From the IMG/VR virus record IMGVR_UViG_3300045988_150638: a DNA stretch of 64,000 nucleotides; one strand, 5' to 3'. The DNA is from a virus. Lineage: Duplodnaviria > Heunggongvirae > Uroviricota > Caudoviricetes. Below are positions 4,688 to 14,527 of the stretch, piece by piece (the first letter of the stretch is position 1; the number at the start of each line of letters is the position of its first letter). A model generated the notes under the pieces. That model worked only from the letters and a program-made list of their open reading frames with translations. It ran no database searches and was not told the origin of the DNA. The translations under genes were made by a program, and so were the position numbers.

Positions 4688-4888
4688 TTATCTGCTGCCC
4701 GGCATTCTCTGTTTAAGCGCAACCATTTCCTGACGGCATAACACAGCAATAGCGGTCCTGACTCCAATTTGCTTACCAACCAGGTATTGCTTTACCTTGC
4801 GGCGACTCACGCCATCAAGAAGCATCTTTAACGCTTCACGGGACAATTTGTTGTATTTGCGTGCCATTAATCTACTCCGCAGAACCAT
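4688..4888 (-). CDS. small basic protein, possible DNA-binding (PdcA-like position)
   Basis: 66-aa ORF between doc and the pdcB-like gene, overlaps doc by a few nt; weak. Confidence 0.3.
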
Positions 4889-5252
4889 ACAATCTACGTA
4901 ACGTGTCGGCGACAGAAGATACAGATATCTCGCCAGTCGCAGCGCCTACAGTAAGGTCTGCCAGTTCAGGTGAATCAAATACCTGCACCCCGTTACGGCG
5001 TAGAAATAACAGCGCACTGTTTAGCGCGGTACGCTTATTGGCATCATTGAATATATGCCCTCTCGCTGTAGCCACCAGGTAGGTGGCGGAGACTTCGAAA
5101 AGGTCGGTGATCTCTTCGTAGGCAACTCTGGCCTGAACTCTCCCGATAATAGCCTCTGCCCTACCCGGATCTGACATTCCCGGCAGGCCGCCGTAGCGGT
5201 TTATATTCGCATCATGAAGCGCAATAAGTTCTTCCGGTGATATATGCCTCAT
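4872..5252 (-). CDS. doc: Doc toxin (Fic-fold) of the Phd-Doc module
   Basis: 126 aa; motif [11 protein letters not shown]; translationally coupled to phd (ATGA overlap at 5252). Confidence 0.9.
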
Positions 5253-5473
5253 TATCGGTTAACCAGTTCCTTGTTGGTGGAGTCCAGGGTGTCAAACAGG
5301 GATGCAAATTCAGCATCCAGCGCCGCTTTTTTGTAGGCTTCGAAAGTAGCCTTGCTGACAATTACTGCTGGCTCACGGCCTCTGCGGGTGATTTCAACCT
5401 CTTCCCCGGCTTCAACATTGTTGAGCACTTCAGAAAGGTTGCCGCGCGCGGTACGGAAGTTAATGGATTGCAT
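5252..5473 (-). CDS. phd: Phd antitoxin
   Basis: 73 aa from [19 protein letters not shown]..., matching P1 Phd as I recall it; the listed ORF has 2 extra N-terminal codons. Confidence 0.9.
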
Positions 5474-5545
5474 AAACACCTCGTGTACTCGTTATGTGTA
5501 CACAATTATAAACTTCACAGGCATAAAGCACCAGCACTTTGCAGC

Positions 5546-5935: not shown

Positions 5936-5953
5936 AGCGTTTTACCTCAATGA

Positions 5954-5973
5954 TACTGTTTATTCATACAGTA
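5954..5973. promoter_or_regulatory. LexA (SOS) box tactgtttattcatacagta
   Basis: Perfect CTGT-N8-ACAG palindrome 19 nt upstream of the humD start codon. Confidence 0.7.
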
Positions 5974-6058
5974 TACATTGAAAAGGCATAGTTTGTGAAA
6001 GCGGGGTTTGTAGGCGCGCCACGCTGGGGGCTAATCACATTTCTCCCCCATCTTGCCG

Positions 6059-6310
6059 TTATTTTTTTGGTGCATCCTCGTTCTGATACACCGGATCGCT
6101 CCCTTTTGGCAACCGGAGGCTTAACTGCCGATAGTGCCGTAACCGTTCCATGAAATAGGTGCGCAGATTCTCTGGTTGCTCGCGGGCTACCTGTTCAGCT
6201 ATGACAGGTATGTTCAATCGCTCTTTGTACGCCACACCGCTGGCAGCCAGATCAACGTTAACCTTATCCCGTTCTTCCTGACTTTTAGCTGCAATATTCC
6301 AATCGTGCAT
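6059..6310 (-). CDS. hot: Hot, homolog of DNA polymerase III theta subunit (HolE)
   Basis: Segment [36 protein letters not shown] aligns with E. coli HolE; start taken at internal Met (MHDWN). Confidence 0.8.
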
Positions 6311-6759
6311 ATCAAATCCCATCCAGAACAATTGCGTAACGACTATTATTTAACCAGCAAAGTAACTTTTAATTTTTTTTCTTTTCCCATTGATTTTTGT
6401 GCACAGCTTATCTGCCTTGCCGTGCGCAGAATCAACTTTTTTCTTCCTGATTTATCCACAAAGTTATGCACTTGCAAGAGGGCCATTTTCTAAATATTGT
6501 GATGTTTCACAAATGAAATGAATTTTGATTAATGAAGATAAGGAGAAAATTTGAGATGCAATCATGACGTTAATAGATAGGGTCTGCATTACAGACCCCA
6601 TCCGCATCAAGGAATTAGCCGTTCCCTGATGTTGTTCCGAAAACATGTGCCGTAAGCTCACGTTAACGACTTTCTTTCACCGAATCCAACTATATAGGGG
6701 TTGGGTTTCTACGTCAACGTGAGCAAGTGCTCCTTTACATTTGACAAGGAACCACCTTA

Positions 6760-6897
6760 ATGACTGCTTTTTTTCAGTTCCTGAGTGCATTTTTAGATGC
6801 GCCTGTTATTAGCCAGATTCTGGCGATCATCCTCATCATCGTTTTGATTTTGCTTTTAAGGTCAGTAAAAAATGGAATTATGCACTGGCTTACTTAA
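6760..6897 (+). CDS. 45-aa hydrophobic peptide (MTAFFQFLSAFLDAPVISQILAIILIIVLILLLRSVKNGIMHWLT), candidate small membrane protein
   Basis: ATG with AAGGA 9 nt upstream; one predicted TM helix; on the opposite strand from its neighbours in a 630-bp otherwise non-coding gap; not in ORF track (<60 aa). Confidence 0.3.
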   Translation: MTAFFQFLSAFLDAPVISQILAIILIIVLILLLRSVKNGIMHWLT

Positions 6898-6971
6898 TGT
6901 TCAGTGAAACATTAAAATCTCCTTGATGTGGAAACAATCATTTTCTGTATGTGCTGGTGGGTACCTGTAGT

Positions 6972-7334
6972 TCAGCTTTCGTTGGCATTTAACTTCGTCT
7001 TTGCTTTCTCCACCAGCAACTTCCAGATGCCTATTTCATTAGCAGCCGCCTTGATGGCGGCATAAAAAGCATCTTGCTGATCGTAACGCTGAATCTGTTT
7101 TTTCAGTTTTGCCTCCACCAATTTAATTTCATTACGTGCTTTCTGAAGCCGCAGCGCCGCCCGGTTACGTCTGTTCTTGTATAGCGCGTTAATCTCTGAT
7201 AATTGCTTTAATTTACCAGCCTGACTGCGGATTATCGCCTCTCTGACTTCTGCCGTGCGTCTCATCTGATCTCTTAAGAGTTCACCGTTTTCGATAATTC
7301 TTTCAAGGTGTTTGATGTGATCTGCAACTCTCAT
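6972..7334 (-). CDS. hypothetical coiled-coil protein
   Basis: 120-aa ORF, end overlaps the start of the upstream gene; charged heptad-like sequence. Confidence 0.45.
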   Translation of the reverse strand: MRVADHIKHLERIIENGELLRDQMRRTAEVREAIIRSQAGKLKQLSEINALYKNRRNRAALRLQKARNEIKLVEAKLKKQIQRYDQQDAFYAAIKAAANEIGIWKLLVEKAKTKLNANES

Positions 7335-8263
7335 ACTTCACCCTCGCTTGTATCGCCAGCATCCACCAGCGGCAATAAAGCCCTGGCCATCTTATGAACC
7401 AATAGTGCATCAATAATGCCAAGCGTATGCCCCGGCTTAATGTTTAATGCCGCCTCAAGGTGACACCTTTCCAGGCCACTTTTCTCGGCTTGTTTATGAT
7501 GATCTGGTGTAATAACGTCGCCCAAAACACGGCTAATTCTTTCTCGTAATTGCTGGGTGCCAGCACACTTGATCGCTGTATCGTGGAGACGGTTAACCAG
7601 TTCGCGATAAACATGCGGCTTAATTCGGATACGTTCACCGGTGACGCCCTTTCCTGGTGCTGGCACCGAACTATCCGGAATGTCCGGATAGTTGCCAGCC
7701 TCGTAAGCTACCCGCAGCCAGTGCATGAATGTTTCAGTGGACACACAACCACAGTCCACATCGATTTTCCCGCGTTGCTGTTCCAGCCATTGCCCAAAAT
7801 CCAACCTGTAAGTCTTACTTTCAAGTTCATCACCATTGAACTCGACTTTCTGCGACGCTATGAGAGCTGATTCGTATTGTTCGCGAGTGACAACTGACTG
7901 GTATTCATCGCTATCAAGGTCACCAATTGGAAGCTCAATCTCACAACAAAAATTGCGCCCAAAGAAAGTGTCTTTTTTGTGGTCTGAGCCAAAAGCAAAA
8001 GTCGCGCATGGTGCCATTAAATTGACACTGGGTAGGTAACAATAACTCATTCCATCAGGCCACCCGCCGCACTTAGGCAGCTCCTTCACTAACAAGTCGA
8101 TAAGCTTCATTTTTTTATCATCTTTGCAAGCCGCCAAAGCCATTTGGGCAAGTGCCAATACTTCATCTGCCGTATATCCAGCACCGTGACCATACATTTC
8201 GATACGGGAAATAATCTCTGATATACGCTCTTCAGTGATTCTGGTCATTTCTTTTTGCGCCAT
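7331..8263 (-). CDS. hypothetical Cys-rich protein
   Basis: 310-aa ORF in the leftward early operon; clustered Cys (CGGW, CC, DCGC); no recognised catalytic motif. Confidence 0.5.
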   Translation of the reverse strand: MAQKEMTRITEERISEIISRIEMYGHGAGYTADEVLALAQMALAACKDDKKMKLIDLLVKELPKCGGWPDGMSYCYLPSVNLMAPCATFAFGSDHKKDTFFGRNFCCEIELPIGDLDSDEYQSVVTREQYESALIASQKVEFNGDELESKTYRLDFGQWLEQQRGKIDVDCGCVSTETFMHWLRVAYEAGNYPDIPDSSVPAPGKGVTGERIRIKPHVYRELVNRLHDTAIKCAGTQQLRERISRVLGDVITPDHHKQAEKSGLERCHLEAALNIKPGHTLGIIDALLVHKMARALLPLVDAGDTSEGEV

Positions 8264-8619
8264 TTCTTTTCACATTCCTTAGTCCATTTTTCAATGTTCA
8301 TTTTGGCAATATCAGTCATTCCATCACCTAAGAAATACTTTCTCCGGTACGTCTTGCACTTAAACCACACTACAACAGCCACCAGCCAGAAAATAAAAGG
8401 CCATACAGCAATACCAACTCCAGCCGCGATAAAGCCCAATAGCCATAAATGAAGCTCTCCAACTTCTGTTTGCGGCAATATTCTTAAAGAATTAAGCAGC
8501 AGACTGAAGGAATAGTCGTATGCATTGGCGGTATAAGACATGCAATCCATATAATTAAAGTCATAGCCTGCGGCTGCCGCCCATAATGGGCGGTCAAGAA
8601 AATGTTTTAGTGTCATCAT
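8245..8619 (-). CDS. hypothetical membrane protein (2 TM helices, basic C-tail)
   Basis: 124-aa ORF; hydrophobic segments LWLLGFIAAGVGIAVWPFIFWLVAVVVWF; overlaps the downstream gene start. Confidence 0.45.
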   Translation of the reverse strand: MMTLKHFLDRPLWAAAAGYDFNYMDCMSYTANAYDYSFSLLLNSLRILPQTEVGELHLWLLGFIAAGVGIAVWPFIFWLVAVVVWFKCKTYRRKYFLGDGMTDIAKMNIEKWTKECEKKWRKKK

Positions 8620-8625
8620 ATAAAT

Positions 8626-9015
8626 TTAAGGTTCAGACCAGTTATCTTCAATAGCAATGCTTAATCTTTGTAGCCATTCTGCTAATTTCAGCATTGCTTC
8701 TCTTTCGCTTAAACCACGCGGGAAATCATCAAGCGCAATTGTTGGCTTGAAGTTCCCAAAATTATCCATTTCAACGGTCAGATTTTGCTCCAGCACGGTA
8801 TTCCTTACGCGGCTATTGTGCCGAAGCAAATATACTGAACGTGATTTATTGGTTTTGTGGTCGAGCTGATATTCGGTAAGTATCATCTGGCTTTTGCCAT
8901 GACTATTACCTCTCCACATACCTACCTCACTTAATAAAACAACTCCATGCGTAGTTGATGATTTTTCCCCACGTAATATAAATCTGCACTCCGGCAGTAA
9001 AACCAAAGCCAACAA
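8626..9015 (-). CDS. hypothetical protein
   Basis: 129-aa ORF (possible internal start); same strand and operon context. Confidence 0.4.
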   Translation of the reverse strand: MLALVLLPECRFILRGEKSSTTHGVVLLSEVGMWRGNSHGKSQMILTEYQLDHKTNKSRSVYLLRHNSRVRNTVLEQNLTVEMDNFGNFKPTIALDDFPRGLSEREAMLKLAEWLQRLSIAIEDNWSEP

Positions 9016-9097
9016 TTGCTGAAAAAATCAAAGCATTTACTTTTGACATTATAAATTTTCTCTCGGCGTCGTAGGTGATAGCACCATAATTGATAAT

Positions 9098-9349
9098 TTA
9101 GTGAGTTAGCAGTTCCATTTTTTGGATGATTTCCGCATGAGCATCATCGTTATCAACACTTAAATCGTTTAATGCCTTTCGCACTACATCAACTTCTTCT
9201 GGTTGGAAGAAGTCATCTCGGTAGTCACCAAATAGAACCGAAACAAGCCTGCCACCAGCAACATCAAGATTGGCGCTAACAGGTGGCTCTTTGCCATCCT
9301 CAAATTCGACTACAAAAGTTATTTTTCCCATCGTTACCACCAGCGACAA
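9098..9349 (-). CDS. hypothetical protein
   Basis: 83-aa ORF in operon context. Confidence 0.4.
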   Translation of the reverse strand: MSLVVTMGKITFVVEFEDGKEPPVSANLDVAGGRLVSVLFGDYRDDFFQPEEVDVVRKALNDLSVDNDDAHAEIIQKMELLTH

Positions 9350-9413
9350 ATTGAATACAAACCCAGTGCTGCCGCCATCACAATTCCTACCGTTGCGAAT
9401 GCTTCAGGCCAGC

Positions 9414-9959
9414 TCATTGACCTGCCTCCTGGGAAGGTTCTGGTAGCAGCATCCAGAACAAGGCGTTCCCTAACCAGGATAAAGTGCCGTCGCTCAACTC
9501 CACGTATTCCCCTTGCACCTGTCCTGCCATATACTCACCGTGCTTTGAATAAATTAAAATCCAATCATCTTGAGCGGGCATTCGCTCACTACAGCTTATC
9601 CAACCATCCGGAGTTACCGGAGAGTTGCCATTCACAAGGTCAGCTCGAACATATAGCGTGTCATCATGGTGCTGATTGTGGCTGCACCACGTTAATTCGC
9701 TTAACTCGCCATTTTCTGGCCATACTCCAGCCGTTTGCAGCCAGATATGGGCTGGCGCATCCTGGCAAGGTGTATTAACTGGAAACTTGTAAGTTTGGCT
9801 TACAGGTTCTGCACTATCAGCTTCGCGCCGCTTCTGTAGCTCTGCTGCCATCGCTCTCACGACTTCAACTGGTGCCCTTGCAGCAAACTCTATGTTGGTG
9901 ATCAGCTCATTAAGATATTGCTCGCCTGGATACTGTTTCTTATCGGTTATAGTGGTCAT
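9414..9959 (-). CDS. hypothetical protein, possibly DUF551-like C-terminal domain
   Basis: Start at MTTITDKK with the recurrent AAAGGAGAGTGATATG junction; Trp-rich C-terminal region. Confidence 0.45.
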   Translation of the reverse strand: MTTITDKKQYPGEQYLNELITNIEFAARAPVEVVRAMAAELQKRREADSAEPVSQTYKFPVNTPCQDAPAHIWLQTAGVWPENGELSELTWCSHNQHHDDTLYVRADLVNGNSPVTPDGWISCSERMPAQDDWILIYSKHGEYMAGQVQGEYVELSDGTLSWLGNALFWMLLPEPSQEAGQ

Positions 9960-9960
9960 A

Positions 9961-10557
9961 TCACTCTCCTTTTCCCTGAAGCATAGCGGCACGGCAGGCG
10001 TTCCAGCCTCTCACCTCTGCAATAGCGGCAACAGCATCGACCGCGTACATGCTAAGAGGATTAGGCATTGGTTTTTCTTCCGGTACTACTGGAACGAGGG
10101 GAGCGGCGTAGACCTCAATAATTCCATTATCAATAGGCCATTCTCCATCCTTGAGGTAGTCACTTGTGCCGTCAACTTGCTGTTCTGCAATGTGGAATGC
10201 ACCTATTGGTTTTGCTTCCAGCGATGCCAGAGCAATTCGTGCCAGTTCTTCCGCTTCTTCTGCTGGCAGTACAACGTTGCTACCAGGTCCGTATGTTTCG
10301 CGCCACTGCTTGATTGTCAGCAGTCGCTCTTTGGTTATAGTGGTCATGGGTTTTCCATCCGCCATCTCTTCATCGGTTTCCCATAAAACTCGCGCCTGCC
10401 CCTCACAGACTTGAATGACTCCGCCACGACCGCAGGAGTTGCACTTAACGGCATCGTCATCCCACAAGGCGGTTTCATTTCCGCGAGCTGTTTTGACCGT
10501 GTGTGATTTATTCCCGCAGCGGCATTTGTTGAGCCAGTCAATAGTGAAAGTTTTCAT
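9961..10557 (-). CDS. hypothetical protein with N-terminal zinc-ribbon-like CxC...CxxC
   Basis: 198-aa ORF; ends KGE-stop at the conserved junction; ATGA overlap with upstream gene. Confidence 0.45.
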   Translation of the reverse strand: MKTFTIDWLNKCRCGNKSHTVKTARGNETALWDDDAVKCNSCGRGGVIQVCEGQARVLWETDEEMADGKPMTTITKERLLTIKQWRETYGPGSNVVLPAEEAEELARIALASLEAKPIGAFHIAEQQVDGTSDYLKDGEWPIDNGIIEVYAAPLVPVVPEEKPMPNPLSMYAVDAVAAIAEVRGWNACRAAMLQGKGE

Positions 10558-10781
10558 GATGCCTCTCCTTTACCCGCTGCTTTCGCCTGCTCTTTAGCAA
10601 GTCGCTCCGCTTCTCTGAAATCCCAATCCACTCGATGTGCTATATCAATTGCAGAGCGCACGGTTCGCTCAATTAGCGTATCCAGATTGTCAATTGTCAT
10701 TGCCATATCTGGATTGCGAGATAAAATCTCCGCCCTCTGAATCTGCCAGTTGTTGCAGGTTTCAAGTAATGAGTTAGCCAT
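10554..10781 (-). CDS. hypothetical small protein
   Basis: Start MANSLLETC preceded by AAAGGAGAGTGAT; 75 aa. Confidence 0.4.
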   Translation of the reverse strand: MANSLLETCNNWQIQRAEILSRNPDMAMTIDNLDTLIERTVRSAIDIAHRVDWDFREAERLAKEQAKAAGKGEAS

Positions 10782-10782
10782 A

Positions 10783-10977
10783 TCACTCTCCTTTAGTGCG
10801 CAAGTGGTTTTTCCAGCGGTTTTGCGCCGCGCTGGGCTTTTTGCAAAAACCACAATCCATCATCCCGTAATATTTCATCAACCCCATCCGTCGGTTGCTG
10901 AGTCTCACCCACTGCCAGACGCCAGGAGCGTTTCTACGAACTAACAGAATCTTTGCTTTACGGTTGTTGGTTGCCAT
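10783..10977 (-). CDS. hypothetical small basic protein
   Basis: 64 aa (MATNNRKAKILLVRR...KGE) with the same junction/RBS cassette; the longer listed ORF 10783..11313 overlaps the upstream gene and is less plausible. Confidence 0.4.
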   Translation of the reverse strand: MATNNRKAKILLVRRNAPGVWQWVRLSNRRMGLMKYYGMMDCGFCKKPSAAQNRWKNHLRTKGE

Positions 10978-10978
10978 A

Positions 10979-11599
10979 TCACTCTCCTTTGATGCGAATG
11001 CCAGCTGCGCTTGCTGATTCTTCATATGCGCGTTTAGCAGCGTTAAGGATTGCTGCCAGTGGCGTATAGCCGCCATCCATTCGGATTGTGTTGTGGATGC
11101 CAGCCATTGTGTTGCGCAATTTTCTGTGGCTAGCAGACAGTTCTGCAATGCGCTTCTCTGCGGCTTCCAGCTTCTCGCGCATATCGTCAACGTACTCGAC
11201 CAGAGAACGGCCAGCAGGAATTTCGCACTCCTCGACCAGTTGGAAGTAGATATCAGCTGCGGCCCGTGTGTTGCTATGCCTAGCGTCGCCCATCTCACCT
11301 TCACGAAGAGCATCGCGTTCGGCGGTAAGATTGGCTATTTTGCTGTCTTTGCCTTCCAGCTCAACGCGAAGCCTCCCTACCGTTAGCGCAATTTCCTCGT
11401 TCTCCTGGTCACGGCGTTTGATGTATTGCTGGTTTCTTTCCAGTTCATCCAACAATGCCAGCGCGATATCTGGCGAAAAGTGCTTCATAAAATCGTTAAG
11501 CGCATTAATTCGCTGATCGAAAGGCATTACAGGTGCTTCACCAGCAATTTTTGTTTTTTCAGCGATTTCACGAAGCTTTTGATAATCAATCTTGCTCAT
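10979..11599 (-). CDS. Ead/Ea22-like early protein, paralog 1
   Basis: 206 aa; N-terminus MSKIDYQKLREIAEK shared with two neighbouring genes; coiled-coil centre. Confidence 0.45.
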   Translation of the reverse strand: MSKIDYQKLREIAEKTKIAGEAPVMPFDQRINALNDFMKHFSPDIALALLDELERNQQYIKRRDQENEEIALTVGRLRVELEGKDSKIANLTAERDALREGEMGDARHSNTRAAADIYFQLVEECEIPAGRSLVEYVDDMREKLEAAEKRIAELSASHRKLRNTMAGIHNTIRMDGGYTPLAAILNAAKRAYEESASAAGIRIKGE

Positions 11600-12297
11600 T
11601 GGATGACTCCTTTACGAAGCTGTTCGGCGATATCTTCGAGAACGCCATCAGAGAATGAACGGTCAAAATCGCCTTCCGGCGCATTGGCCATAAACTCAGT
11701 AGAGGTAAGAATCATCCGGGCAATATCCGCAGCGTTCTTCGCAGTATCATCAATAAAACCAGCTTTCCAGGCTGCCAACATTCTGTTCGCCACAAAATAA
11801 GCGCCTTCCTTGCGTGCTTCAGTCTTCACTTCAGCTAGAAAAGCATCGGTAGCTGGAGTTTCGCTGTGGTGCAGGGCATCGTTGATAATCATTGCAGCAA
11901 CTCCGGCCTGCCCTGCATCCGTGACCGACACATGCTCAAGAGTTACGGCCATTGCGTGTTTCAGCCCGGCGTTCTCTGCCACCAGCGCCGCGAGATTAGT
12001 CTCAAGCTCTGCAATTCGACACATAGCATCAATATTTGTGTCCTCCAGGCACTTAATTTCACCAAGCAGCTCCAGTGCAACCTTTGGGTTGAACGCGGCA
12101 ACATGACGAGCGTTGTTCTCTGCATTTTTCTGTCCATCAAAGCCGGTCCATTTGATAACGTCTTCACATCGTTCATCACCGGGCGTGTGCACCGCATAAG
12201 TACCAGTCTCCGTCGAAATAAATGCGACCCATTCGTCTGGTGTTGCCTTTTCTGCCGCCTCACGCAGTACCTGATAGTCAATTGTCATTCTCGCCAT
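11596..12297 (-). CDS. Ead/Ea22-like early protein, paralog 2
   Basis: 233 aa; N-terminus MARMTIDYQVLREAAEKATPDEWVAFI; C-terminal ETPATDAFLAEV...EQLRKG shared with the 12926..13699 gene. Confidence 0.45.
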   Translation of the reverse strand: MARMTIDYQVLREAAEKATPDEWVAFISTETGTYAVHTPGDERCEDVIKWTGFDGQKNAENNARHVAAFNPKVALELLGEIKCLEDTNIDAMCRIAELETNLAALVAENAGLKHAMAVTLEHVSVTDAGQAGVAAMIINDALHHSETPATDAFLAEVKTEARKEGAYFVANRMLAAWKAGFIDDTAKNAADIARMILTSTEFMANAPEGDFDRSFSDGVLEDIAEQLRKGVIQ

Positions 12298-12929
12298 CCT
12301 TCACAGTTGTAATCACTACAGCCTTCAAAATCATATGGGCTGTACTGCCAGGTTATTTTTCCGCAATGCGGACAATTCCAACGCACCTTCCCGCTTCGCG
12401 ACTTCTTTCTTCTGTTCTGCTCTTCCAACCAGTCAGGCATGACCAAACCTGCGCCCTGAACCATTGTTCTGCGGTTAAAGTTATTGATATTGAACGTCCG
12501 GCGCTTTGCTGAATCAGCAATGGAAAATGGCAACCAAACTATTCCTGGTTCGTTTTTGTTGGCGACGCTAAAGATGGTCGCTTTACTGAAGTCATCTGTT
12601 GGCAATCCACCGTGTTGAAGCCAGTAAACATCGTTGCCGTTCCAGCTACCTTTTTTGTAGGCCACATACGCAGTGCAATCTGGCTCAATCAGGTTTTCTG
12701 TAGGGATGTACTGGCAATCAACGTGCCACACAGCCATTGCATCCACGCTATCAGCGCAAACAGGCTGATCGATATCTCGACCACAATTCCAGGCTTTTTG
12801 GGCTTCTTCCAGCGTGTAAACATGAGCGCGATCGATATTAGAACTGTAACCATTGCCGTTATGGCAATGGAATGAAGCGTTATTACCCACAGTTTCACGC
12901 AAGCACATCATGTAAAAGCGGTTATTCAC
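12285..12929 (-). CDS. hypothetical protein with C-terminal CxxC...C zinc-finger-like motif
   Basis: 214-aa ORF in operon; WNCPHCGK near the C-terminus. Confidence 0.4.
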   Translation of the reverse strand: MNNRFYMMCLRETVGNNASFHCHNGNGYSSNIDRAHVYTLEEAQKAWNCGRDIDQPVCADSVDAMAVWHVDCQYIPTENLIEPDCTAYVAYKKGSWNGNDVYWLQHGGLPTDDFSKATIFSVANKNEPGIVWLPFSIADSAKRRTFNINNFNRRTMVQGAGLVMPDWLEEQNRRKKSRSGKVRWNCPHCGKITWQYSPYDFEGCSDYNCEGWRE

Positions 12930-13699
12930 TGGCTGCCTCCTTTGCGAAGCTGGGCAGCAAAGTCAACTAACCACTCAGTCATTTCAACCTTCCCTACCAG
13001 GTCTGAACCAGGGTGCATACAGCAATCACTCTGCGCCGCTTTGAAATCCTTACACTCATATTCTTGGGCCACCAGATTTTTTGCAGCTTCTATAGCAGCA
13101 TCCACCCCCTGCGCCCGGACTTCAGCCAGGAAAGCGTCGGTGGCTGGGGTTTCGATATTAGGCAGAAGCGCATAATCGCAAATCGTATCGATCGCAGGAT
13201 CACAACAGTCATCCTCGTTGCGTGGTCGTTCGCCAACCTTCGTTGACGATTGCATGATGATTCCCCAGCAAATACTATCGACCTCTTCGCTCCATCCATC
13301 GCAAGCATCACCGCGATAGTCGTCGATTGCAGCCTCAGCCGATTCGATAGCTTCCTCAGCAGTTTTGTGCCATTCGAAATTATGCTCAGAGCCATATGAG
13401 AAATATGAATGTCCCGCCTTCAGCCCCGCATTCTCAGCAGCCAGCGCCGCGCACTTGGCCTCAAGAGCGGCAACCACTTCCTGATGGTCTTTGTACTTAA
13501 CGTATGAGCCGGAGATGTCATCACCTTCGGTGTTTAGCCATGCGTCATTGCAATTCACTGCGTAGGTTCTGATGCTCATGCTGATGCTCTCCCGCCTCTG
13601 ACAGACGCCAGGCCAGTCAATAAAGTATCCGCAATGCCTACCCTCAGACGTGCGCGCAGGATAAATGCCGTTATGACCGGCAAAATATATGCTACCCAT
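12926..13699 (-). CDS. Ead/Ea22-like paralog 3 (main frame); conserved N-terminus lies in a different frame at 13758..13576
   Basis: C-terminal ETPATDAFLAEVRAQ...AAQLRKGGSQ is paralogous to 11596..12297; the family N-terminus (SKINYQELREAAEQATQDEWVAYI) is encoded upstream in another frame. Confidence 0.4.
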   Translation of the reverse strand: MGSIYFAGHNGIYPARTSEGRHCGYFIDWPGVCQRRESISMSIRTYAVNCNDAWLNTEGDDISGSYVKYKDHQEVVAALEAKCAALAAENAGLKAGHSYFSYGSEHNFEWHKTAEEAIESAEAAIDDYRGDACDGWSEEVDSICWGIIMQSSTKVGERPRNEDDCCDPAIDTICDYALLPNIETPATDAFLAEVRAQGVDAAIEAAKNLVAQEYECKDFKAAQSDCCMHPGSDLVGKVEMTEWLVDFAAQLRKGGSQ

Positions 13700-13744
13700 T
13701 CATCTTGCGTTGCCTGTTCCGCCGCCTCGCGCAGTTCTTGATAG

Positions 13745-14332
13745 TTAATTTTGCTCACTGGTTGCCCCCTGAATACGCTTAAACTCGATTACCCACACCC
13801 AAGGATTAGCGTTCCAACTATCTTCGCCATAAATTGATTTCCATAGGCTACGGAAACTTGGGTAATGCTTATCGCCAATGAGGGTCGATTCTGTTGGTGC
13901 GCCCTCAGCCCTTGCATCGCATTCGCTGATATCGTTCAACCGCTCAACGCGCACGTTGGTAATTTCCAGAAGAATGCGCGATGCCCAGCGCGGCATGTGA
14001 ATTGATGGCGTCCACTTTTCTGATACTGGTTTATTACAAACCTCGACCGGAACCCGGTGCGTTTGTTCTGTCCAGGAGTTACGCACGCTTGCGCGATAAA
14101 CCAGCGTTGCGACGTCCGTCGCTTTGCCATGTACCCGGTAGGTTTCGCGAACCCAAATACGATCGCCCGGCTGACCATATGGACAATGCTTGGCAAGCAA
14201 CTCTGCGGCTACTGCCCGTCCATAGAATTTTTCTTCAACAATCCTGCGAGTCTGTGTTTTATTCCCGCCAAGAATTGCCCGGACCATCTCATCGTTAAAA
14301 ATCATGCCGCGCTCTTTCACTTCGCCTTTCAT
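13745..14332 (-). CDS. hypothetical protein, possibly ASCH-like
   Basis: 195 aa; N-terminal MIFNDEMVRAILGGNKTQTRR resembles ASCH-type phage proteins; weak. Confidence 0.35.
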   Translation of the reverse strand: MKGEVKERGMIFNDEMVRAILGGNKTQTRRIVEEKFYGRAVAAELLAKHCPYGQPGDRIWVRETYRVHGKATDVATLVYRASVRNSWTEQTHRVPVEVCNKPVSEKWTPSIHMPRWASRILLEITNVRVERLNDISECDARAEGAPTESTLIGDKHYPSFRSLWKSIYGEDSWNANPWVWVIEFKRIQGATSEQN

Positions 14333-14341
14333 ACATCACCC

Positions 14342-14428
14342 TTACCCATGTGCGACGATGCCGCCAAAAGTGATAGAGAACAGCCAGAAATAGATCGCGG
14401 CCATAATGATTTTGAATGCCGTGTTCAT
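14342..14428 (-). CDS. 28-aa hydrophobic peptide (MNTAFKIIMAAIYFWLFSITFGGIVAHG)
   Basis: AGGAG RBS 8 nt upstream; preceded on the same strand by a C1-operator-like site and an 8-bp perfect hairpin (14458..14478). Confidence 0.3.
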   Translation of the reverse strand: MNTAFKIIMAAIYFWLFSITFGGIVAHG

Positions 14429-14510
14429 ATTTTCAGCTCCTGTGATTGATTGGATACATGCCGCGCCTTGCGGCATGTTTTAATTTTCACTTTCTCTGTT
14501 TTAAAAATCA

Positions 14511-14527
14511 AGATTTATTAGAGCAAT
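14511..14527 (-). promoter_or_regulatory. C1-operator-like site (agatttattagagcaat, 1 mismatch)
   Basis: 16/17 match to the recurrent 17-mer; overlaps the stop codon of the upstream gene. Confidence 0.5.

Follow-up and report, generated by a model that had tools for sequence, protein, structure and literature searches.

A candidate type I toxin-antitoxin-like module next to hot in a P1-like phage-plasmid, and the variable pmgT operon beside it

The type I toxin-antitoxin (TA) systems hok/sok of plasmid R1 and ldrD/rdlD of Escherichia coli are the closest described counterparts of the locus reported here, a 640-bp gap located next to the gene hot in a 64,000-nucleotide stretch of viral DNA (IMG/VR record IMGVR_UViG_3300045988_150638, hereafter the window), which belongs to a P1-like phage-plasmid (Punavirus). 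In hok/sok, which is plasmid-borne, a membrane peptide is encoded at the 3' end of a structured mRNA of ~400 nt, and a short antisense RNA, made from a strong promoter of its own, can pair with the leader at a site far ahead of the toxin start. In ldrD/rdlD, the target of the antisense RNA is the 5' untranslated region and not the open reading frame (ORF). The gap of the window combines a conserved peptide gene, a host-derived promoter with DnaA boxes and an opposing antisense RNA candidate, a set that is credible, as far as primary sequence can tell, as a new type I TA-like module in P1. That the gap represents a new family of such modules is put forward tentatively. The composite explanation, in which this module is followed on its right by the distal part of the pmgT operon (up to position 9350), comes near to what could be called probable without reaching it.

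The candidate module joins a small membrane peptide to a long structured leader, a putative convergent antisense RNA and a plasmid location, and so has a hok/sok- and ldr/rdl-like architecture. With hok/sok it would share the four traits just mentioned, plasmid location, peptide at the 3' end of a structured mRNA, short antisense RNA with its own strong promoter and complementarity far upstream of the peptide start. It differs by the lack of a mok-like overlapping frame and by an unrelated peptide sequence, and membership failed, no Hok_Gef, Sok or hok-mRNA match being found in Pfam, NCBIfam or Rfam. With ldrD/rdlD it would share the position of the antisense target in the 5' untranslated region, and its peptide has, like the Ldr peptides, an 'AP(V/I)' motif at the start of the transmembrane helix together with a basic tail. 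A local alignment with the sequence of LdrD (LDAPVISQILAIILI / LAAPVIAGILASMIV) had 8 identities out of 15 and a pairwise E of 0.001, a lead only, which may be compositional. The P1-module peptide is longer (45 aa versus 35), and neither an Ldr profile nor an rdlD covariance-model match was obtained, so that membership of this family failed too. Two other systems call for comparison. The nrdAB promoter, regulated by DnaA, Fis and NrdR, has a homologue in the gap, with unrelated sequence past the -10 and a peptide gene in place of ribonucleotide reductase. The type II system phd-doc is an addiction module of the same replicon, ~1 kb away at 4872-5479, but it has a protein antitoxin and the Doc kinase toxin, and displays no sequence or architectural relationship to the peptide module. 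Searches of Rfam over 4.5 kb at E <= 1 returned nothing; at E <= 10, the 651-nt gap segment gave sub-threshold noise, including a 15-bit partial BsrG match (gathering score 55).

Positions 6000-9700 were matched by Escherichia phage vB_EcoM-813R1 (98.9% identity over 98% of the length) and by Salmonella phage SJ46 (96.8% over 80% of it). Canonical P1 (NC_005856) matched the window at 6056-7706 only (97.8%) and has no counterpart of 7706-9350, so that gene-for-gene conservation with P1 holds for 6340-7706 and fails for 7706-9350. Identity of the gap to P1 is 98.9%; to P7, SJ46 and many plasmids it is 91.8%, while a third clade, also called the L004 clade, stands at ~77% identity (for example CP057418). 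Comparisons of the gap drew on 100 loci, taken from IMG/VR and from annotated records of phages and plasmids, which reduced to 22 distinct sequences in three clades. The initial annotation had made the gap 630 bp long; it does exist, but measures 640 bp (6332-6971), since hot stops at 6331 and the end of the following long ORF on the minus strand is at 6972. It had also been unable to place the genes of this interval among those of P1, which is no longer tenable: by transfer of the P1 annotation, hot corresponds to 6059-6331, the gap to upfO, upfN and upfM with the promoter LPhot (6345-6368) and a noted pair of DnaA boxes, the 120-aa gene to pmgV (6972-7334), and residues 200-310 of the 310-aa protein, the 3' third of its ORF, to PmgU. 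The pmgT gene of P1 is not in the window. The features of the gap and of its left border are as follows.

6760 to 6897, plus strand: 45-aa peptide gene with one predicted transmembrane segment, MTAFFQFLSAFLDAPVISQILAIILIIVLILLLRSVKNGIMHWLT; the only frame open in all clades
6507 to 6759, plus strand: putative structured leader of the peptide mRNA, ~250 nt; the most conserved part of the locus, with a consensus fold
6376 to 6500, plus strand: copy of the E. coli nrdA promoter, by homology; -35 TTGCAA at 6472-6477, -10 TATTGT at 6495-6500
6452 to 6460 and 6464 to 6472, plus strand: DnaA boxes TTATCCACA and TTATGCACT, respectively; shared with E. coli nrdA and noted in the P1 record
6689 to 6717, minus strand: sigma-70 promoter TTGACG-17-TATAGT, 'PupfN' of P1; 10 of 12 consensus positions with 17-nt spacing in a generic scan
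6565 to 6685, minus strand: putative antisense RNA of ~115 nt with three stem-loops, SL1 (6637-6669), SL2 (6605-6631) and SL3 (6576-6602)
6580 to 6598, no strand: 7-bp perfect hairpin forming the core of SL3, checked directly on the sequence
6894 to 6915, plus strand: AU-rich 8-bp stem-loop over the peptide stop codon; a perfect inverted repeat, weak (-3.9 kcal/mol in the consensus) and with no U tract after it
6059 to 6331, minus strand: hot, homologue of DNA polymerase III theta (Pfam DNA_pol3_theta, E 1.2e-33) and of P1 hot; left border of the gap
6345 to 6368, minus strand: LPhot, a late promoter once named LPr91; its -10 (6345-6350) and -22 Lpa (6360-6368) boxes are placed through 98.9% homology with the P1 record

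The hydrophobic plus-strand ORF of 45 codons had been located exactly at 6760-6897 by the initial annotation. Its product has a mean Kyte-Doolittle hydropathy of 1.62, and a Shine-Dalgarno sequence (AAGGA, 6747-6751) lies 9 nt before its start and is kept across clades (AAGGA or GAGGA) with a spacing of 8-9 nt. No clade departs from the ATG, the stop or the length. A comparison of the two most distant clades shows 31 differences over the 138 nt (22%) of the ORF and no indel at all, whereas the adjacent non-coding flanks carry at least five indels between clades. Eight of its codons differ synonymously only and 18 with replacements, which are mostly conservative (I/V/L/F, R/K) and retain hydrophobicity; NG86 gives a dN/dS of 0.45, and stops occur in each of the other five frames. 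RefSeq annotates the peptide as hypothetical protein WP_000123562.1 in several plasmids, while the reference records of P1 and P7 do not. It forms an orphan family: phmmer against 1.84 billion representative proteins retrieved four clusters, all of close relatives and some with frameshifted or interrupted C-termini, and tblastn hits were confined to P1-like phages and to plasmids of Escherichia, Salmonella and Shigella. A search for the peptide pattern among GTDB species representatives found nothing, and a Pelomonas match from a 20-mer scan of these representatives shared just the 20-mer and was attributed to chance. IMG/VR and JGI metagenomes contributed the same three clades only, so the power of covariation analysis could not be raised.

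Natural variants of the peptide ORF were met in several records (ON470617.2; NZ_AP026785.1 830-1560; proteins P0121-P0124). They comprise a T7 to T6 frameshift near the start in vB_EcoM-813R1, A-run frameshifts that alter the C-terminal tail, and an IS1 in the 3' end. These could be homopolymer sequencing errors or true inactivation of a harmful gene.

The three ORFs annotated in the gap of P1 do not withstand the same comparison. Stops interrupt upfM, upfN and upfO in the ~77% clade, and upfN and upfO are frameshifted in P7. On this evidence upfM, upfN and upfO are probably not genes and the reference annotation is probably wrong; it is probably the promoter DNA that accounts for the conservation credited to these small ORFs. 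The annotation of the locus would change even with a non-toxic peptide, the annotated ORFs being unconserved and the unannotated one conserved. It is worth noting that upfO (6346-6486, minus strand) is the positional homologue of E. coli ypaB, an opposite-strand ORF over the nrdA promoter; homology of the gap promoter to that of nrdA makes upfO the counterpart of ypaB.

This homology is extensive. All 5,426 complete E. coli genomes have a match to positions 6376-6490 just upstream of nrdA and in its orientation, at ~83% identity (83.5%). The alignment pairs both DnaA boxes and the -35 with those of E. coli nrdA, and the TATTGT -10 stands at the same 17-nt spacing as TATCTT of nrdA. Identity of the 40-nt core to E. 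coli is 90-97.5% whichever of the three clades is taken; in the upstream part, the P7 type is 87% identical to the host and the P1 type 70%. With two boxes that abut the -35 and co-linearity with PnrdA, this is a candidate DnaA-regulated promoter of nrdA type. Transcription would start at ~6504-6509 and proceed rightwards, the start derived from the same alignment in E. coli lying ~107-110 nt before the nrdA ATG. The known length of the E. coli nrdA leader agrees with a start at this distance. No functional follow-up of the DnaA boxes in P1 was found in the searchable literature. Other regulatory sites were considered and discarded: at a putative LexA box in the plus-strand promoter the L004 clade has CTG-N12-CAG, not N10, a CRP-like site reads TGTGA-N4-TCACA, not N6, and is unconserved, and NrdR boxes are unrecognisable in the P1 copy on inspection.

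The same nrdA-like promoter with two DnaA boxes was also seen beside a humD-like gene in AP026520.1 (2590-2745), a 115-kb phage-plasmid with metG and apbC. There, a strong intrinsic terminator (AAAAAGCCCAG...CTGGGCTTTTT) follows ~100 nt past the promoter, and a candidate small RNA of ~90 nt would replace the peptide mRNA. About 110 plasmids of this type match the promoter segment only.

The peak of conservation is not in the ORF but in the leader, where variable sites are fewest (~20 between 6531 and 6710). The leader contains a 10-bp hairpin (6681-6707) nested in a 12-bp stem (6657-6668 with 6712-6723). The hairpin is specific to the plus strand, three of its pairs being G.U there and A.C on the minus strand, and the whole peptide mRNA folds with z = -3.07. 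On the opposite strand, both hexamers of the sigma-70 promoter are invariant across the 22 distinct variants and the three clades. We propose it as an antisense RNA promoter, with a start at ~6681-6685. The 119 nt of the minus strand from 6683 to 6565 have a minimum free energy of -43.8 kcal/mol (z = -4.95; none of 200 shuffles as stable), and the consensus fold of the same columns reaches -42.3 kcal/mol on the minus strand versus -28.3 on the plus strand, because at least seven pairs are G.U on the former and A.C on the latter. Substitutions between clades in the stem-loop region fall in loops and linkers (the SL2 loop TAGCC becomes TCACA) or are compatible with pairing, and the stems are conserved. 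SL3 displays a compensatory change from T:A to C:G in the L004 clade, and position 6601 changes from A-U to G.U between P1 and P7. The core of SL3 is the 7-bp perfect hairpin (GGGTCTG/CAGACCC with a 5-nt loop) that the initial annotation had seen at 6579-6597; the hairpin is real and lies 1 nt further on, at 6580-6598. Judged by ORF conservation and by this compensatory change, respectively, the 45-aa ORF and the hairpin are both beyond chance.

The 5' tail of the candidate antisense RNA (6683-6665) is unpaired and complementary to the internal loop of the long hairpin of the leader, and is plausible as a nucleation site for pairing. The stem-loop at 6894-6915 includes one double change from U-A to C-G and one from G-C to G.U, pairing on the plus strand only, and may be a 3'-end element of the peptide mRNA. 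As in hok mRNA, 5'-3' long-range pairings are possible in the P1 module, with conservation that is not clear: a Hok-like fold-back (AAGGAGA at 6541 with TCTCCTT at 6917; 6601-6613 with 6920-6932) is partly kept in the L004 clade and was not relied on. A leader peptide or mok-like ORF was likewise dismissed as unconserved, ATG CAA TCA TGA of P1 being ATG TAA in the L004 clade.

These elements can be assembled into a working scheme. The locus would be a self-contained accessory module of ~610 bp with back-to-back promoters, LPhot directed leftwards into hot and the nrdA copy directed rightwards. The rightward transcript would carry the structured leader of ~250 nt and then the 45-aa membrane peptide, and the sigma-70 promoter inside the leader would fire in the opposite direction to yield the ~115-nt antisense RNA with its three stem-loops. 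Through its 5' tail, the antisense RNA would pair with the internal loop of the leader and leave the mRNA untranslated or marked for degradation. Should the supply of antisense RNA fail, upon plasmid loss or transcription shut-off, the membrane peptide would be made; the DnaA boxes would link transcription of its mRNA to the replication-initiation state of the cell. Downstream of the module, the six distal genes of the pmgT operon would be expressed when C1 repression is lifted. The comparisons show conservation of the ORF and of the promoters, RNA folds specific to one strand, and the nrdA promoter homology; expression of both RNAs, translation of the peptide, its harmfulness and its repression by the antisense RNA are inferred. 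The full version, a new-family type I TA system present in P1, P7 and about one third of P1-like phage-plasmids and gated by both the antisense RNA and DnaA or replication status, is unlikely as it stands.

The distribution of the module is patchy. It was found in ~228 PLSDB plasmids versus ~660 that have the core gene pmgS, i.e. about one third of P1-like plasmids, and a stretch covering 80% or more of 6340-6760 is present in 216 of the 5,426 complete E. coli genomes. Its flanks vary, with hot or IS903 on the left and pmgV or hsdM on the right, and it was also found on a 114-kb plasmid with metG and apbC. By these sequence records, the module behaves as a movable accessory unit. As for its left border, P7-type relatives lack hot and have IS903 or other ORFs in its place. 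The window itself lacks lxr (LexA-regulated, 573 bp), which lies between humD and hot in P1, and its humD-hot spacing is ~120 bp (5936-6058). At the LPhot site, AATAAT was also picked up by the generic promoter scan.

To the right of the gap, the initial annotation had counted five minus-strand genes without recognisable domains. There are six of them up to a DUF551 (EaA-like) gene, and the absence of Pfam, NCBIfam and PADLOC matches was borne out. These genes and the operator that would command them are the following.

6972 to 7334, minus strand: pmgV, 120 aa, predicted coiled coil; identical to P1 PmgV, phrog_4403 (E 6.6e-78), no Pfam match
7331 to 8263, minus strand: 310-aa modular protein of the full-length PmgU / P7 Upf89.5 family, with shared C-terminal modules
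8245 to 8619, minus strand: 124-aa small membrane protein, phrog_2638; conserved N-terminal domain, hydrophobic stretch 56-88 and basic, Cys-containing tail
8626 to 8919, minus strand: 97-aa protein (129 in the ORF list, from an upstream TTG); phrog_1258 aligns from residue 33, and it is 97 aa long in vB_EcoM-813R1
8927 to 9049, minus strand: 40-aa hydrophobic small protein, phrog_5525 (E 2.6e-23), annotated in vB_EcoM-813R1
9098 to 9331, minus strand: 77-aa acidic protein (83 in the ORF list, from a TTG); phrog_3876 aligns from residue 7, annotated in vB_EcoM-813R1
14511 to 14527, minus strand: C1 operator ATTGCTCTAATAAATCT, homologue of P1 Op88/OpmgT, one mismatch to the consensus; beside pap

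Eleven C1 operator-like sites occur in the window versus 0.27 expected, and the flanks of Op88 match the PpmgT region of P1 next to pap. All ORFs from Op88 to pmgV are on the minus strand and tightly packed. The operator together with this packing on one strand identifies 6972-9350 as the distal end of a C1-repressed pmgT operon, expanded to ~7.5 kb in the window; uninterrupted co-transcription down to 6972 would follow from the same layout. Compared with the Op88 operon of P1, the operator and promoter beside pap are the same and PmgV is identical and occupies the same distal place, but ~13 further genes, Ead/Ea22-like and DUF551 ones among them, lie between Op88 and pmgV in the window. The order pmgV-310-124-97-40-77 is the commonest among 60 loci, and that of P1 itself is in the minority.

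The 310-aa protein had been described as Cys-rich and overlapping the next gene, and both points were confirmed: 10 of its residues are Cys (3.2%), and the overlap with the 124-aa gene spans 19 nt. It is built of an N-terminal module (residues 1-46), a Cys-rich insert (47-150) and three C-terminal modules (150-200, 208-262 and 262-303). Its residues 200-310 are identical to P1 PmgU at 106 of 111 positions, and its C-terminal 165 residues (53% of the query) are 98% identical to P7 Upf89.5. The C-terminal modules are shared by 853 homologues of 195-437 aa in which the N-terminal part and the Cys-rich middle are swapped or absent, and PHROG matches were mosaic, including partial ones to PHROG 60 and 924. 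In P1, pmgT consists of ~231 unrelated codons followed by ~78 codons that read the DNA of the 310-aa family in another frame. The N-terminal ~230 residues of P1 PmgT are unrelated to the 310-aa protein, and DNA homology with P1 ends at 7706. With this unrelated 5' part and out-of-frame 3' end, the pmgT/pmgU pair of P1 looks like a recombination scar; it is best read as the result of foreign DNA having replaced the 5' part of a gene, with pmgU as the 3' remnant, the gene in the window being the intact form.

Mosaic module swapping and a non-essential character are also known from the lambdoid Ead/Ea22 and EaA (DUF551) genes. None of the six ORFs in 6972-9350 reaches the Pfam gathering score for Ead/Ea22 (PF13935) or DUF551 (PF04448); it is in neighbouring genes that such matches are found, to DUF551 at 9414-9992 and to Ead_Ea22 at 10979-12297. 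An N-terminal module (M..ITKERL..I......G......E..ELA..ALA; 'TITKERL...') recurs in 7331-8263, 9961-10557 and P7 Upf89.5, which suggests a shared recombination or interaction module of mosaic early genes. The 124-aa protein has 16 homologues only among 5.8 billion proteins, the distant ones in Yersinia, Klebsiella and Proteus phages. Two transmembrane segments had been claimed for it; a single hydrophobic stretch of ~31 residues (56-88) was found instead, and AlphaFold2 gave one helix (55-97) at low confidence. Homologues of the 97-aa protein occur in the gp44/45 region of N15 and in phiKO2, P22-like phages and mEp235. The distal genes recombine as cassettes among temperate enterobacterial phages.

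Attempts at functional assignment of these proteins were fruitless. Scans of all ORFs with Pfam, NCBIfam, PADLOC and PHROG returned PHROGs of unknown function only. Profile searches and structure prediction yielded neither a family match nor a usable model for the 310-aa and 124-aa proteins, the AlphaFold2 models (mean pLDDT 47.5 and pLDDT 64, respectively) both being too poor to use, and a Foldseek search of the PDB using the model of the 310-aa protein found nothing below E 3. A nucleoside deaminase suggested for residues 52-150 of the 310-aa protein by a PDB profile search (E 0.23) was not significant and has no PCxxC/HxE zinc motif. Likewise, the RefSeq annotation of phage RCS47 hints at an ASCH domain for pmgT, for which P1 PmgT has no Pfam match, and this is not claimed.

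The interval 6340-9350 corresponds to the right end of the published variable region 8 of P1, and replacement of pmgT has been published for phage JL22. The cargo of relatives at this locus includes type I hsdMSR, an acyltransferase with an SGNH hydrolase, and insertion sequence (IS) elements. In several P1-like plasmids, hsdM-hsdS-hsdR replaces the whole pmgT cargo (the equivalent of ~6970-14500), from the peptide module (or phd) to pap. According to the P1 record, the flanks are identical to sequences around the EcoDXXI and R124 (R124/3) hsd loci, so these type IC systems are probably carried by P1-like elements at this hotspot. The initial suggestion of a variable accessory insertion was therefore correct as to the hotspot, which was already published: relatives carry cargo there, 7706-9350 is absent from P1, and G+C is low (38% in the gap at 6300-6899 and 40-41% at 8100-9299, from the 124-aa to the 77-aa genes, versus 48-51% in the surrounding backbone). 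It was not correct as to an insertion, the gap and pmgV being shared with P1 (98.9%) and P7 (91.8%) and the arrangement of the window being the commonest among the relatives sampled. Positions 6972-9350 comprise non-essential accessory genes that form the majority allele of a variable operon.

Several points weigh against a TA function of the gap. The literature searched had no transcript, translation or toxicity data for the locus and no description of a peptide, an antisense RNA or a type I TA system at this place in P1. No known type I toxin or antitoxin family was matched in Pfam, NCBIfam or Rfam, and Lehnherr and co-workers reportedly mapped P1 plasmid addiction in 1993 to phd-doc alone. 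The nrdA-like promoter has only 8 of 12 consensus positions, was called by homology alone and is below the threshold of a generic scan. The antisense RNA has no clear intrinsic terminator, with no U tract after SL3 and no hit in a generic terminator scan, and covariation is limited to few events in three clades (a single double change each for SL3 and the 3' stem-loop). Part of the 12-bp outer stem (6657-6723) is upstream of where the antisense RNA is proposed to begin, and the stem pairs slightly better on the minus strand, a preference that the two-RNA picture leaves unexplained and that, on inspection, would suit a minus-strand read-through RNA. The latter is a point in favour of an alternative that we regard as somewhat unlikely, namely that the peptide is a real small membrane protein other than a toxin, with a role such as modulation of host membrane proteins, superinfection exclusion or envelope-DnaA coupling. 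In an equally doubtful extension of this alternative, the minus-strand promoter and stem-loops would be a constitutive promoter and leader for hot, or would serve in processing or termination of pmgT read-through. Evidence for the ORF and its promoter fits it equally well, the peptide has no match among toxin families, many of the bacterial membrane proteins in the 30-50 aa range have a regulatory and not a toxic role, and the authors of the P1 record annotated the minus-strand promoter as an ordinary 'PupfN'. However, P7-type elements without hot and with IS903 downstream conserve the minus-strand promoter and stem-loops just as well, which indicates that the promoter does not simply serve hot. 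Moreover, the leader is more conserved than the ORF, as is typical of constraint on both strands, and the patchy distribution with changing flanks is more like that of an addiction or accessory cassette.

The coding capacity of the gap can itself be questioned. If the gap were purely regulatory, with divergent promoters, DnaA-binding DNA and RNA structures that end or stabilise the converging hot and pmgT-operon transcripts, the ORF would be open by chance or through another constraint, which is distinctly unlikely. Substitutions are spread evenly over codon positions (11/8/12) without third-position bias, and together with a dN/dS of only 0.45 this makes the coding evidence modest; at 38% G+C, T-rich codons yield hydrophobic residues without selection, the ORF was not called in canonical P1, and some records have frameshifts or IS insertions in it. 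On the other hand, an ORF that shows neither indel nor stop at 22% divergence, next to flanks with at least five indels and with its five other frames stopped, and that has kept or strengthened its Shine-Dalgarno sequence, its exact length and the conservative nature of its replacements, would be hard to reconcile with chance. For the gene block, the initial annotation had favoured defence or anti-defence genes, an idea to which no test gave support. Among the seven proteins searched against PADLOC-DB 2.0, the sole match was between PmgV and PbeC (E 0.058), noise from the coiled coil. That the Cys-rich, membrane and small proteins of 7331-9350 form a defence or anti-defence cassette inserted into P1 is the least likely of the alternatives and appears very improbable. 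The hotspot does hold type I restriction-modification in relatives, expression upon C1 release would suit counter-defence, G+C is low, and N15, phiKO2 and P22-like phages have homologues in their early or accessory regions. The genes pmgT, pmgU, pmgV, upfN, upfO and hot are non-essential for lytic growth, upfM being outside the tested set (PMC10695390); this fits an accessory role and does not point to defence or anti-defence. Against such a cassette stand the lack of any PADLOC, Pfam or NCBIfam match and of a usable model or fold match, an arrangement that is that of the family majority and not an insertion, and the position behind a C1 operator, where prophage-expressed defence is not normally found; nothing pointed to any particular defence or counter-defence activity. 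The type I TA-like reading of the gap, with the pmgT operon beside it, is kept as the tentative explanation.

P1 provides both a reference genome and a standard tool of bacterial genetics, and P1-like phage-plasmids are important carriers of resistance genes. If the type I TA-like reading is true, P1 would have a second stabilisation or abortive system besides phd-doc, and the upfM, upfN and upfO annotation would give way to a single gene for a small protein and an antisense RNA. By capturing the nrdA promoter with its DnaA boxes, a mobile element would then have wired a killer or regulator peptide to a replication-initiation signal of the host. In the DnaA-gated version, a replication-sensing addiction or abortive switch would lie under three mis-annotated ORFs of a 70-year-old model phage. 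The gene block yields a negative outcome, being the usual allele of a known variable operon, with no recognisable defence island.

At the other end of the pmgT operon, a hydrophobic ORF of 28 aa (MNTAFKIIMAAIYFWLFSITFGGIVAHG) with a good Shine-Dalgarno sequence was noticed at 14342-14428 (minus strand), right after the Op88 promoter. It is preceded by a GC-rich hairpin (CATGCCGC-AAGG-CGCGGCATG) and has no Pfam match. The peptide is identical in P1, with one synonymous change, and is unannotated there; it may be a leader peptide or a small membrane protein heading the pmgT operon.

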